64,000 bases of DNA. It comes from Candidatus Heimdallarchaeum endolithica. GTDB taxonomy: Archaea > Asgardarchaeota > Heimdallarchaeia > Heimdallarchaeales > Heimdallarchaeaceae. Position numbers and translations under genes: made by a program. The notes beneath the pieces were generated by a model that made no database searches, was not told the origin of the DNA, and saw only the letters and a program-made list of their open reading frames with translations. The DNA lies in NCBI GenBank assembly GCA_021513715.1, contig CP084167.1:1632001-1696000 (forward strand), written 5' to 3'. Shown here piece by piece: positions 15,777 to 17,765 of this stretch. Position 1 is the first letter of the stretch; every line of letters starts with the position of its first letter.

Positions 15777-16757
15777 TTATTCAAAAGAGAAGTCTATTGA
15801 GTAAGTTTCAATTAAAGGGTTCGCCAGAATTTCATTACTTATTGTTTCTGTAACATCCCAAAGTTTTGACCCAGGAACAGATGTAAAACTAATAACAATG
15901 CTTTTTCCGATATTTACTTTTGATACCTGCTTGTAACCAAGACGTAGTAAAGAGCGAATGGTTATATCTCCTGCAGGATCTAAAACTGATACTTTTAAAT
16001 CGATAGTAACTCTAACTTTAGTCTTTAACTTTATTTTTGGAAGCTCTTTAATTTGTTCCAATCTAAAAGCTATATCGTTATAATGATCAACAACACTACC
16101 TAGATCTTTTCTATATCTATCTTTATCTTTTATTTCTCCAGAATTCTCTTCCCATAAGCGCATTGTATCAGCAGAAATCTCATCAGCTAAAATGAGTTTG
16201 CCATCCTTTGTTCTTCCAAATTCTAATTTAAAATCAACCAAAGTTAATCCTATTTTCTTGAATACTGCTACTAAAATATAGTTTACTGCTAATGTTACTG
16301 CTTTTATTATTATATTTTCTTTTTCATTAATCCAGCCTAAACTTATTGCTACTTCTTCTGTAACCAAGGGGTCATGAAGTTCATCATTTTTATAAAAAAG
16401 TTCAACAATTGGTTTTTCAAATGGGATCCCTTTCTCAACACCGTATCTTCTACAGAAGCTTCCTGCAGTAATATTTCTACAAACTGATTCAACAGGAATA
16501 ATTTCCACTTTTTTACAAATTAGTTCATTTTTTGATTCTTGTTTTAAATAATGTGTTTCAATTCCATAATGATTAAGAATTTCAAACAACAATTTAGATA
16601 TTTTACAATTAGCTTCTCCCTTTCCTTTTAATTCATCTACTTTTACACCATCAAAAGCAGAAATTGAATTTCTAAATACAATTTTAACTTTTTCACCACC
16701 AAGAGTAATAACATCTTTTGCTTTTCCAGAATACAACTTTTCCAACACCAACACCAT
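15777..16757 (-). CDS. purC-purS: Fused SAICAR synthetase (N-terminal) and PurS (C-terminal ~80 aa)
   Basis: PurC: YSGKAK, RNITAGS, YKNDELHDP, DFKLEFG, ADEIS.D.MRLW, DKD.YR. PurS: LKVSVLDPAG...GK...LANPLIE. ATG 16757 preferred over TTG 16772. Confidence 0.9.
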   Translation of the reverse strand: MVLVLEKLYSGKAKDVITLGGEKVKIVFRNSISAFDGVKVDELKGKGEANCKISKLLFEILNHYGIETHYLKQESKNELICKKVEIIPVESVCRNITAGSFCRRYGVEKGIPFEKPIVELFYKNDELHDPLVTEEVAISLGWINEKENIIIKAVTLAVNYILVAVFKKIGLTLVDFKLEFGRTKDGKLILADEISADTMRLWEENSGEIKDKDRYRKDLGSVVDHYNDIAFRLEQIKELPKIKLKTKVRVTIDLKVSVLDPAGDITIRSLLRLGYKQVSKVNIGKSIVISFTSVPGSKLWDVTETISNEILANPLIETYSIDFSFE

Positions 16758-16772
16758 TGCATTATTTTGCAA
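16757..16772. promoter_or_regulatory. Candidate operator TTGCA-N6-TGCAA at the start of the pur operon
   Basis: TTGCAttatttTGCAA overlapping the purC-purS start; same motif recurs at 16908 and 28530. Confidence 0.6.
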
Positions 16773-16907
16773 CCCGACAGTATGTCAGATTTGATACGAA
16801 AAAATTAGTGGATTAATAAATGTTGCGGAACACAATGATAATTCCGTAAATAAGACCGCAGACAATTAATAAAAACGAAAAAAACAGCAACAGTAAGAAA
16901 AAGAAAT

Positions 16908-16923
16908 TTGCAACGTAGTGCAA
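16908..16923. promoter_or_regulatory. Candidate operator TTGCA-N6-TGCAA upstream of the regulator gene
   Basis: TTGCAacgtagTGCAA next to the palindromic TATA-like AAACTATATAGTTT (16925-16938). Confidence 0.6.
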
Positions 16924-16976
16924 AAAACTATATAGTTTCTTAAAAAAAATTTAACAATGAGTACATTTTTATTGTT

Positions 16977-17765
16977 TTGAGTGCAATGAGTTCAGTGGAT
17001 AGTTACTTTGATGCTAAAGAGAAGCTTATGGTTCTTAATTTACTAAGAATGGTTTTCAAGAGGTTTACAACCCTAGAGGATCTAAAAACATATCTTGATA
17101 ACAAAGGTGTAGAAATTTCAATAGCAAACCTATCTAGATATATTAATGGCAAAGCTCTTCCAAAATCTAAGTTAAAAGACAAACTACTAAAAGTACTTGT
17201 AGGCAATAGAGAACTTGGTTTAGACATCAACTTACTTACGCATAAGCACATTGAGATTTGGCCTAGTGAGTATGGAATTGCTGTTAATAATGGACATCTA
17301 TTAAACGATTCAAAAGCTCTTAATGCTATATTATTCATGGCTATTTATAAGCAGTTCATTCCCACAGATGTTGACAAAGTAATTACAGCAGAAGTTGATG
17401 GTATTGTAATTGCTAGCACACTAGCTCACTTATTGAACATTGATTGTGTATATGCTAGAAAGAAAAAACCGACAGGATCATTTCGTTGTTTATCAGAAGA
17501 CATTCAATCAGCAACATCAAGTAGAATCGAAACTCTTTATTTTCCTGAGAAATATATTAGGAAAAACGAAAGAGTTATCATTATTGATGACATAATACGC
17601 TCTGGATCTACGCAAAAAGCTTTAGTTAATCTTGTCCGAAAAGCAGGAGGAATACCAGTAAAGGTTATTATTCTTATTGGCATTGGTTCACATTGGGAAA
17701 AAATTACAAAATTAAGCAATATCCCTTTTAAGGCTTTAACAGTTGTACCTCGTTCTGAATCTTAA
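16977..17765 (+). CDS. HTH-phosphoribosyltransferase fusion, probable PRPP-sensing pur regulator (PurR-like)
   Basis: N-terminal HTH (ISIANLSRYING..LP), PRPP-binding loop VIIIDDIIRSGST; divergent from the pur operon; start may be ATG 16986. Confidence 0.8.
   Translation: MSAMSSVDSYFDAKEKLMVLNLLRMVFKRFTTLEDLKTYLDNKGVEISIANLSRYINGKALPKSKLKDKLLKVLVGNRELGLDINLLTHKHIEIWPSEYGIAVNNGHLLNDSKALNAILFMAIYKQFIPTDVDKVITAEVDGIVIASTLAHLLNIDCVYARKKKPTGSFRCLSEDIQSATSSRIETLYFPEKYIRKNERVIIIDDIIRSGSTQKALVNLVRKAGGIPVKVIILIGIGSHWEKITKLSNIPFKALTVVPRSES

Follow-up and report, generated by a model that had tools for sequence, protein, structure and literature searches.

How archaea control the transcription of their nucleotide synthesis genes is poorly understood, and no regulator is named in the standard survey of purine synthesis in archaea (PMC3261824). 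In the Asgard archaeon Candidatus Heimdallarchaeum endolithica, the purine synthesis (pur) operon is divergent from the gene for a 259-aa protein whose family is labelled adenine or xanthine phosphoribosyltransferase in databases, and copies of one palindrome lie next to these genes and upstream of purP2-guaA. The locus raises the question of whether this protein is a salvage enzyme or a regulator of nucleotide genes, and of what the palindromes do. We analysed a window of 64,000 nucleotides (the whole stretch, positions 1,632,001 to 1,696,000 of contig CP084167.1), the closed genome from which it comes (3,326,783 bp), and related genomes; coordinates are those of the window unless given as genome positions. 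The gene calls of the original prediction, a minus-strand pur operon with an HTH-phosphoribosyltransferase (PRT) gene divergent from it and two purP genes and guaA 12 kb off, proved correct. The relevant features are the following:

6905..16757, minus strand: operon of purC-purS (fused), purQ, purL, purE, purB-purM (fused), purN, purF, and purD, with intergenic gaps of at most 15 nt, or overlaps
16756..16773, no strand: O1 (ATTGCATTATTTTGCAAC), operator candidate touching the purC-purS ATG
16813..16820, minus strand: predicted TATA box of the purC operon (minus-strand sequence TTTATTAA) next to a BRE-like element, from a MAFFT alignment
16907..16924, no strand: O2 (TTTGCAACGTAGTGCAAA), operator candidate with the top matrix score in the genome, 24.0
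16928..16955, plus strand: two putative promoter elements for the regulator gene, CTATATAG at 16928-16935 and TTAAAAAAAATTTAAC at 16940-16955
16986..17765, plus strand: candidate regulator gene, 259 aa, divergent from purC
27375..28529, plus strand: purP1
28529..28546, no strand: second candidate site of purP2-guaA, whose core is perfect, immediately behind the purP1 stop codon; matrix score 12.4
28642..28659, no strand: operator candidate upstream of purP2-guaA (TTTGCAAAATGTTGTAAA), at -148 from the purP2 ATG; matrix score 20.4
28790..31309, plus strand: purP2 (FAICAR synthetase type, DUF1246/DUF1297) and guaA (GMP synthase)

Rarity and conservation of the palindrome

Perfect copies of TTGCA-N6-TGCAA are located at 16757-16772, 16908-16923, and 28530-28545, where 0.16 copies would be expected per window; none of 100 shuffles reached three. 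These three copies, placed as originally predicted, are the only perfect ones in the 3.33-Mb genome, and all are at pur genes. The first covers the operon start, its end coinciding with the A of the purC-purS start codon (ATG; minus strand, 16757-16755), and the second abuts the TATA-like box of the regulator gene, with CTATATAG starting 4 nt further on and TTAAAAAAAATTTAAC next, both as had been described; the sister species retains TTAAAAAAAATTTAAC only. The extended motif is an 18-nt palindrome, tTTGCA-nTATAn-TGCAAa. The N6 spacing shows no genome-wide enrichment (3 copies vs 3-16 for the other spacings from N0 to N14), so the case for the motif is one of placement and conservation and not of copy number. 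Among relatives, the numerical enrichment is modest, at 1-11 perfect copies per genome vs 0-3 for the reversed control, and perfect sites elsewhere in these genomes are mostly within ORFs or beside unrelated genes.

A scan of the window's own genome with an 18-nt matrix yielded 33 matches scoring at least 12 per 3.3 Mb, from which the chance of such a match is about 0.004 per 380-nt region. Intergenic matches at this score numbered 13, compared to 1 for the reversed control, and included the sites of the regulator, purP2, guaB, and pyrBI promoters; O1 at purC scores 17.3 but overlaps an ORF call. Two degenerate copies had been noted near purP2. The copy at 28643-28658, with one mismatch, has a high score with the extended matrix and is conserved, whereas the one at 28556-28571, with two mismatches, is probably due to chance because the window contains 34 two-mismatch matches. 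The scan of this genome detected no site for purA (best score 0.7) and none above 8 for prs, upp, the xpt-like gene, pyrE, and pyrF-C-K-D; a search of the genome for a xanthine/uracil permease gene found none.

The regulator is encoded in 28 of 30 genomes of the family Heimdallarchaeaceae and is divergent from purC in 20 loci. In all 20, the purC promoter is flanked by a pair of sites with a separation of 145-164 bp, including an O1 equivalent at the same offset, and the half-sites are kept while the spacers vary. A MAFFT alignment of this intergenic region from 13 lineages, made without reference to the motif and in that sense unbiased, contained only four conserved elements, namely O1, O2, the purC TATA box, and a TG.cga block. 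Single sites recur in the family upstream of guaB (score of at least 12 in 14 of 24 loci), pyrBI (pyrB, 12 of 17), and purP2-guaA (14 of 18); these counts come from related genomes and do not represent independent samples. The purP2 site is the one kept at -148 to -157, and the second site there, 113 bp away, is genus-specific, recurring at -263 in the sister species. In relatives, purP1 lies directly between the regulator gene and purP2; in this genus, purP1 is at a distance of about 9.6 kb from the regulator gene, with unrelated genes in between.

Beyond these loci, sites of the TTTACA-N6-TGTAAA type are present upstream of purC in sister-family genomes that encode a homologue with 34%-38% identity, and a clade without detectable purC, purP2, and pyrB still has the regulator and the guaB site. 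The site is thus conserved upstream of linked orthologues and co-occurs with the factor, the pattern by which comparative genomics recognizes a regulon, and a check for scattered or unconserved copies came out clearly in favor of conservation at nucleotide genes. We consider it very likely that the palindrome, whose conservation extends to about twenty related genomes, serves a nucleotide regulon as its operator. Given that sites recur at purC, guaB, purP2-guaA, and pyrBI, this regulon appears to span purine, GMP, and pyrimidine synthesis. The purine regulon originally proposed is therefore retained for the purine genes but is too narrow in scope, given the conserved guaB and pyrBI sites and the lack of a purA site. 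In Heimdallarchaeaceae, the regulon would consist of the de novo IMP operon, the regulator gene itself, purP2-guaA, guaB, and pyrBI.

Several other matches from the scan were examined for conservation and rejected as targets. A site in the SIS/MMPL spacer (genome position 1268806) is kept in the same genus only (2 of 29 loci), and for a strong pair at genome positions 3042363/3042231, a site scoring at least 10 is present in 7 of 26 loci, with a different offset. We likewise left the sites near panB/DNA methylase and TPR/FG-GAP genes out of the regulon. The strong pair adjoins an unknown 285-aa gene and a 2495-aa ORF.

Site position and direction of control

Positions relative to the promoters differ among the targets (TATA boxes and transcription starts were inferred from consensus and conservation). 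At purC, the TATA box is followed 39 nt downstream by O1, which covers about +17 to +34 of the predicted transcript; the gap is fixed at 39-40 nt in five loci counted by hand. The distance of O2 is 151 bp to O1 and 86 nt to the purC TATA box, upstream of which it lies, and the TATA-like elements of the regulator gene follow O2 directly. A different purC promoter, with O2 at the 22/32-nt position, was considered and rejected as not conserved, being present in this genus only. With O1 between the predicted transcription start and the ATG and O2 some 150 bp upstream over the putative BRE/TATA of the regulator gene, the two sites bracket the purC promoter, which suggests repression, possibly by looping, along with autorepression. 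Autoregulation, as originally proposed, is compatible with the loci in which the regulator gene adjoins purC and is not compatible with a clade in which this gene is located among pyr genes and has no good upstream site.

The guaB and pyrBI promoters each have a single site, with its edge 14-25 bp upstream of the BRE position. The site is upstream of the TATA box at a distance of 22-25 or 32-33 nt for guaB and 22 or 32 nt for pyrB(I), the two classes being exactly one helical turn apart (10-bp phasing). Because the two gaps differ by one helical turn, the arrangement points to face-specific contact with the basal machinery rather than to occlusion. By archaeal precedent, sites 22 or 32 bp upstream of the TATA box occupy an activator-like position, which argues against the simple repressor that was originally proposed.

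The best explanation as a whole, which we hold with moderate confidence, is that a dimer of the HTH-PRT protein on the palindrome responds to a phosphoribosyl ligand, with an effect that depends on position. The PRT-domain dimer would set two XRE-type HTH domains on the half-sites of tTTGCA-N6-TGCAAa, with centers 11 bp apart, and the PRT pocket would accept a phosphoribosyl ligand (PRPP or a purine nucleotide), resulting in altered DNA binding or oligomerization. The sign of the effect would probably be set by the position of the site: at guaB and pyrBI, a protein bound on one face of the helix would more likely aid the binding of TBP/TFB, that is, activate. Action of the regulator in both directions, as suggested by the sequence layout, is a tentative proposal that may well be wrong. 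It is rather doubtful that a single factor turns the de novo IMP operon off and guaB and pyrBI on so as to balance the purine, guanine, and pyrimidine pools; repression of purC and activation of guaB and pyrBI in the same ligand state would require a balancing logic that is conjecture. If the dual-sign reading is true, a nucleotide-pool circuit would here be described for the first time in Asgard archaea.

The strongest alternative is a uniform PurR-like repressor that binds all sites in the ligand-free state, blocks or distorts every promoter, and is released by PRPP; at the upstream sites, it would oligomerize or wrap DNA in the manner of Bacillus PurR. Activation does not follow from an upstream position as such because Bacillus subtilis PurR represses from PurBoxes located just upstream of -35, from which it spreads until released by PRPP (PMC8789054). 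Moreover, PurR is the nearest relative of the PRT domain (see below), the purC and regulator sites are at classical archaeal repressor positions, and co-repression of all nucleotide genes is the simplest physiology. Nevertheless, this alternative appears unlikely to us, considering that guaB and pyrBI have one site each, upstream of the BRE and at distances one helical turn apart, and that additional flanking sites for spreading are not in evidence.

The HTH-PRT protein as the candidate regulator

The 259-aa protein consists of a probable N-terminal XRE/lambda-repressor-like HTH domain (residues 1-78), a linker or hood with a beta hairpin (residues ~81-121), and a type I PRT domain (residues 119-245). 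The probable recognition helix (residues 46-53) overlaps the invariant segment S50-R51-Y52..G55..P59, in which the L-S-R-Y-x-N-G-K-x-x-P pattern is invariant. The PRPP-type loop, D201-D202-I-I-R205-S-G207-S-T209, is intact, and conservation of D201, D202, R205, G207, and T209 is complete or at least 90%. The only Pfam match of the whole protein is Pribosyltran (PF00156), and a Pfam search with residues 1-115, even at E 10, returned nothing relevant and no HTH_3. In the AF2 model (pLDDT 92.8), nearly all top VIA-align matches of the N-terminal domain are XRE, Cro/CI, POU, and CUT domains (Z 4.2-6.8; best match, Z 6.8 and rmsd 3.2 over 67 residues); Foldseek with the isolated domain gave an XRE regulator as the best match, weak at E 0.94, and none below E 0.9, so that a consistent fold class emerged with VIA-align only.

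In a profile search of the PDB, B. subtilis PurR (1p4a/1o57/7rmw) ranked first (E 7e-17), with residues 126-233 aligned to 127-234 of PurR, and Foldseek aligned 238-254 columns to PurR, with a different domain orientation. The whole protein falls below the model cut-offs of PurR (TIGR01743, 58.0 vs 258.7 bits, with only residues 120-231 aligned) and GfcR (NF045507, 22.1 vs 300 bits). The PRT domain of B. subtilis PurR is catalytically silent and has the same length and register as that of the Heimdall protein. The conserved R205, G207, and T209 align with the PurR pocket residues K207, G209, and T211 (PMC8789054). The PPi-loop residue is Asp138 in the regulator, compared to Arg in APRT and Lys in PurR, so the ligand may not be PRPP itself, as the original proposal had it; a nucleotide, or a different sugar phosphate of the kind that GfcR binds (PMC10838023), is just as conceivable.

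The annotation of the family as an enzyme, combined with our failure to find another clear APRT in the genome (separate xpt/hpt-like, upp, pyrE, and prs genes are present), leads to a second alternative, namely that the palindrome serves another factor, and the HTH-PRT protein is an enzyme with an N-terminal extension or an unrelated regulator in the cluster. The nearest enzyme relatives are indeed APRT and XPRT, not OPRT, and the link between the protein and the site is drawn from sequence. In addition, one genome (G038, 94% complete) has a weak AT-rich palindrome at purC and no detectable homologue of the regulator. Distant homologues (53 loci, 30%-37% identity) adjoin guaA or purB in only four loci and, in a crude search, had no upstream TTGCA-N6-TGCAA and no common palindrome with 6-nt arms, so we do not extend the operator beyond the order.

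Several observations argue against this alternative, which we consider quite improbable. The protein scores far below the cut-offs of the APRT/XPRT models (TIGR01090, 50.1 vs 185.9 bits; TIGR01744, 63.1 vs 164.5; NF006671, 66.6 vs 177) and, unlike those single-domain enzymes, has an extra conserved N-terminal region of ~118 residues that includes the 78-residue HTH domain with its invariant recognition segment. Divergence from the main target and a site over its own promoter are conserved, the regulator is kept alongside the guaB site in genomes without the de novo pathway, and no different regulator gene is conserved beside the sites. Together, the synteny, the pair of sites, the co-occurrence, and the PurR-nearest PRT domain are in line with the original prediction of a palindrome-operator regulon with the HTH-PRT protein as its candidate regulator. 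Judging from its sequence, the protein that databases list as an adenine salvage enzyme very probably acts as a DNA-binding switch that senses a ligand; it would accordingly be a transcription factor rather than an enzyme, and it is likely to bind the palindrome.

That the palindromes are RNA hairpins (leader or terminator) or features of chance or composition without regulatory function is extremely unlikely: O1 is in the predicted purC 5' leader, which folds at -13.2 kcal/mol vs -8.8 +/- 2.4 for shuffles (z-score of only about -1.8), and the 28530 copy directly follows the purP1 stop codon, but the guaB, pyrB, and regulator sites are upstream of TATA boxes and hence would not be transcribed, the stem would have just 5-6 bp and no T-run, no Rfam family matches within the window, both half-sites are kept across 47%-70% protein identity with free spacers, the pattern of a site for a dimeric protein, and chance is excluded by the shuffles, genome-wide rarity, conservation, and reversed-matrix control.

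Relation to known regulators

Firmicute PurR (TIGR01743; PDB 1O57, 1P4A, 7RMW) likewise combines a DNA-binding domain at the N terminus and a type I PRT effector domain and controls the de novo purine operon and its own gene, with paired inverted repeats at the pur promoter (PMC8789054), a pattern similar to that in Heimdallarchaeaceae. The originally noted likeness to Bacillus PurR holds for the PRT domain but not for the winged helix: PurR contains PuR_N (PF09182, unique to PurR), and the Heimdall protein probably has an XRE/lambda-like domain instead. The operator candidate, a single 18-bp palindrome, is unlike the PurBoxes used by PurR, in agreement with the original prediction. Also unlike in PurR, the regulon includes pyrBI, the promoters are of the archaeal TATA/BRE type, and the site positions suggest mixed repression and activation. 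A role of (p)ppGpp is unlikely in the archaeal system, unlike in the case of Firmicute PurR.

An activator mode has reportedly been described by Kilstrup and Martinussen in 1998 for Lactococcus lactis PurR, which is said to activate pur genes with PRPP from an upstream box at a fixed distance. The phased guaB and pyrBI sites, for which activation is deduced from geometry, resemble this mode; L. lactis PurR differs in acting at sigma-70 promoters, in its winged helix, and in its box sequence. Escherichia coli PurR (LacI family), whose 16-bp operator is palindromic and whose targets extend to pyrimidine and guaBA genes, is a functional analogue with an unrelated fold that senses hypoxanthine and guanine. 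Bacillus PyrR is another PRT-fold protein turned regulator, which binds RNA and keeps its enzyme activity.

The only characterized archaeal transcription factor with an HTH and a PRT fold is GfcR of Haloferax volcanii (NF045507), an activator of sugar catabolism that binds the sugar phosphates KDPG and FBP (PMC10838023). Our literature search found no archaeal purine regulator of the HTH-PRT type and GfcR as the sole archaeal HTH-PRT regulator. Like the Heimdall protein, GfcR is misnamed as an enzyme (PyrE1) and keeps the 5-phosphate-binding loop; however, it is PyrE-like with a short N-terminal helical region, whereas the Heimdall PRT domain is APRT/XPRT/PurR-like.

The system described here offers one protein and one exactly defined 18-bp site, together with five target promoters that show three distinct geometries. 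If the proposed function is correct, it would give access to the architecture of promoters and the logic of activators and repressors in Asgard archaea, the prokaryotes most closely related to eukaryotes, and would represent a nucleotide sensor of the PRT fold whose attached DNA-binding domain is not the one used in Firmicutes. A systematic misannotation as adenine phosphoribosyltransferase across many archaeal genomes would be corrected as well, and under the dual-sign reading, the PRK08558 family of Thermococcus, Bathyarchaeia, and many Asgard lineages would consist of transcription factors, not enzymes.

This family (NF006328/PRK08558; archaeal, ~238 aa, "adenine phosphoribosyltransferase"), for which we found no experimental paper in the literature, has the same two-domain architecture. 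The Heimdall protein matches NF006328 over its full length (residues 10-252 vs 7-235 of 238, E 4.5e-44) at 150.8 bits, below the 184-bit cut-off, and looks like a diverged Heimdall subfamily of this architecture. Homologues with 30%-37% identity are encoded in Thermococcus, Bathyarchaeia, and several Asgard classes, and those of the NF006328 type form at least ~150 clusters at 50% identity.

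Genes and palindromes of the purine cluster

The putative regulator, a predicted protein combining a helix-turn-helix (HTH) and a phosphoribosyltransferase (PRT) domain, is encoded next to the pur operon in the closed host genome (3.33 Mb; G+C content, 30.8%). Its close homologues carry the annotation Candidatus Heimdallarchaeaceae, in line with an Asgard host.

Features of the purine cluster and its surroundings (window coordinates)
6905-16757, minus strand: pur operon, tightly packed, comprising purC-purS (fused), purQ, purL, purE, purB-purM (fused), purN, purF, and purD
16986-17765, plus strand: regulator gene (259 aa), divergent from the pur operon; only a PRT domain recognized by Pfam (residues 119-245)
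17892-27282: 366-aa ORF without family, ADP-forming CoA-ligase subunits, NosD-like beta-helix protein, and urocanase
Twelve kilobases away: purP1, purP2, and guaA
31364-32785, directly 3' of guaA: pyridine nucleotide-disulphide oxidoreductase gene, then glycine-cleavage T protein gene

Both gene fusions are unusual: PurB-PurM (adenylosuccinate lyase and AIR synthetase; 10170-12500, minus strand) and PurC-PurS (15777-16757, minus strand), the latter kept across the family loci. In relatives, the regulator, purP1, purP2, and guaA are contiguous; the ~9.6 kb of unrelated genes separating the regulator from purP1 in the genus Heimdallarchaeum (which includes G001, Ca. Heimdallarchaeum aukensis PM71) indicates a probable insertion or rearrangement. 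With the oxidoreductase and T protein pair directly downstream of guaA, the purine cluster is bordered by genes of one-carbon supply; no palindromic site was seen at this pair.

The perfect TTGCA-N6-TGCAA copies of the original prediction were recovered at 16757, 16908, and 28530, and these three are the only ones in the whole genome. The expectation from shuffled sequence was 0.16 perfect copies, and in 100 shuffles the count never rose to three. Spacers beside nucleotide-synthesis transcription units make up, by a rough estimate, ~0.1% of the genome, so the chance of three random sites all falling there is on the order of 1e-9. The N6 spacing as such is not over-represented genome-wide (3 copies vs 3-16 for other spacers); the evidential signal of the motif is its position and conservation. 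The copy at 16757 (O1) extends as far as the A of the purC ATG, and CTATATAG stands 4 nt beyond the copy at 16908 (O2). Both degenerate copies proposed near purP2 were found, one with a single mismatch (28643) and one with two mismatches (28556), the latter probably a chance occurrence.

Conservation of the site pair and architecture of the putative regulator

A homologue of the regulator is present in 28 of the 30 Heimdallarchaeaceae genomes (47-98% identity), and 20 loci have it in divergent orientation to purC. The motif is conserved in these relatives: every one of the 20 divergent loci carries a site at the purC start and a second site 145-164 bp off, with the half-sites kept (TTGCA or TTACA; TGCAA or TGTAA) and the spacers freely variable. 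A motif-blind MAFFT alignment of 13 diverged spacers contained just four conserved blocks: both sites, the TATA/BRE of purC, and, close to the inferred start, a short TG.cga block. The palindrome derived from forty sites at regulator/purC loci is tTTGCA-nTATAn-TGCAAa (18 nt). In genomes of the sister family with a 34-38% identical homologue, TTTACA-N6-TGTAAA-type sites are located upstream of purC. In the related genome G011 (locus L015), the regulator is divergent from pyrF instead of purC, and the spacer still contains two very strong sites (scores 23.2 and 21.2) 141 bp apart; judging from this locus, the site pair moves with the regulator.

The best NCBIfam match of the regulator is NF006328 (PRK08558, "adenine phosphoribosyltransferase"), full length and below the cut-off; against the true APRT, XPRT, PurR, and GfcR models, it scored far below each cut-off. 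The best solved relative found with a profile of 22 homologues is Bacillus subtilis PurR (E 7e-17), the PRT domain of which aligns with that of the regulator in the same register. PurR residues K207, G209, and T211, nearly universal among PurR proteins (PMC8789054), correspond to R205, G207, and T209 of the regulator, all conserved. At the PPi-loop position, the regulator has Asp138, APRT has Arg, and PurR has Lys. AlphaFold modeling of the whole regulator was confident (pLDDT 92.8), and the C-terminal domain matched APRT and XPRT in a Foldseek search. The model and PurR aligned over 238-254 columns but differ in domain arrangement. Modeled alone, the N-terminal 78 residues, which include an invariant S-R-Y..G..P segment, matched HTH domains of the XRE, Cro/CI, POU, and CUT types, with VIA Z values as high as 6.8. 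This N-terminal domain, apparently an XRE-like HTH, is not the winged helix of PurR.

Membership in the Firmicute PurR group fails on the DNA-binding domain and the model score; the regulatory logic proposed here would be the same, and would also resemble that of Lactococcus PurR, the activator form. GfcR, the only characterized archaeal HTH-PRT factor, has another PRT subtype, another ligand, and another regulon than the regulator (PMC10838023). A literature search turned up no published archaeal regulator of the HTH-PRT type for purines or pyrimidines. Separate xpt/hpt-like, upp, pyrE, prs, and purF genes are present in the same genome as the regulator. The two-domain family comprises at least ~150 clusters at 50% identity, with members in Thermococcus, Bathyarchaeia, and several Asgard classes. 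Of 53 such distant loci, only 4 have guaA or purB as a neighbor, and no shared palindrome was found upstream among them.

Predicted promoter geometry and extent of the putative regulon

TATA boxes and transcription starts were predicted from sequence. In each of five loci counted by hand, 39-40 nt separate O1 from a conserved TTTATTAA ahead of it on the purC strand, which has a BRE-like element. O1 would then span about +17 to +34 and end at the purC ATG. O2 is located 80-99 nt upstream of the purC TATA box and abuts TATA-like elements directed at the regulator. Some relatives have these elements 22 nt from the regulator ATG, and the transcript would be leaderless there. Other relatives keep the O1-O2 distance but differ in how far O2 is from the regulator promoter, so that O2 seems to be linked with O1 as much as with autoregulation.

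The matrix scan of the genome yielded 13 intergenic matches scoring at least 12, compared to 1 with the reversed matrix, including the regulator promoter (24.0), purP2 (20.4), guaB (14.5), and pyrBI (13.6). O1 (17.3) was classed as coding because the ORF call begins at an upstream TTG. Orthologous loci confirm guaB and pyrB as putative targets, with sites scoring at least 12 in 14 of 24 loci (mostly at -70 or -80) and 12 of 17 loci (mostly at -81 to -89), respectively; for purP2, a site at -148 to -157 is found in 14 of 18 loci. No site was found at purA, nor, in the host genome, at prs, upp, pyrE, or pyrF-C-K-D. The original notion of a purine regulon is too narrow, given the conserved sites at guaB and pyrBI. 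With sites at purC, purP2, guaB, and pyrB across loci and none at purA, the predicted regulon concerns nucleotide synthesis more broadly: it covers the IMP pathway, the branch to GMP, and the first committed step toward pyrimidines. Its putative core is purC and the regulator, and the periphery differs by lineage; for example, the guaB and pyrB sites are absent in genus g2.

The guaB and pyrB promoters have a single site followed, after 22-25 or 32-33 nt (guaB) and 22 or 32 nt (pyrB), by a conserved BRE/TATA ~30 nt from the ATG. The two spacing classes are one helical turn apart, which points to a possible face-specific contact with the basal machinery at guaB and pyrBI. For archaeal factors such as TrmBL1, SurR, and Ptr2, sites upstream of BRE/TATA activate, and those at the start or beyond it repress. 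Bacillus PurR, however, is a repressor that acts from boxes lying upstream (PMC8789054), so position does not fix the sign of regulation here.

We infer that the regulator binds the motif as a PRT-mediated dimer, which would read the palindrome through two XRE-type HTH domains; a phosphoribosyl ligand bound by the PRT pocket would modulate DNA binding. Acting at the O1-O2 pair, this protein would repress its own gene as well as the IMP operon; at guaB and pyrBI, where the upstream sites are phased, it would probably be an activator.

Outside the window, an uncharacterized 285-aa gene and a 2495-aa ORF flank a strong pair of sites (genome positions 3042231-3042380): TTTACAATATATTGTAAA, scoring 19.4, and a second site of score 11.8 at a distance of 132 bp. 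In some relatives, a different, weaker site is conserved at -282.

Putative regulator and guaB in a clade where purC was not found

In the five genomes of one clade searched (G010, G020, G030, G012, and G007; 87-90% complete), purC and purP2 were not found, and neither was pyrB, except for one weak match in G007. This clade and its close relatives (G008) retain the regulator, embedded between pyrF and pyrK-pyrD or pyrC (loci L020-L023, L027, and L028), as well as guaB and its site, which is weaker in some. The clade may be a purine-auxotrophic lineage that has kept the regulator.

The guaB gene of Ca. H. endolithica (genome positions 874586-876022) is uninterrupted by the in-frame insertion of ~446 aa that follows residue ~305 of IMPDH in G005 (L087:2380-3780), G017, G022, G010, and G020. 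The inserted segment contains intein splicing, Hint, and LAGLIDADG domains and is thus an intein with a homing endonuclease.
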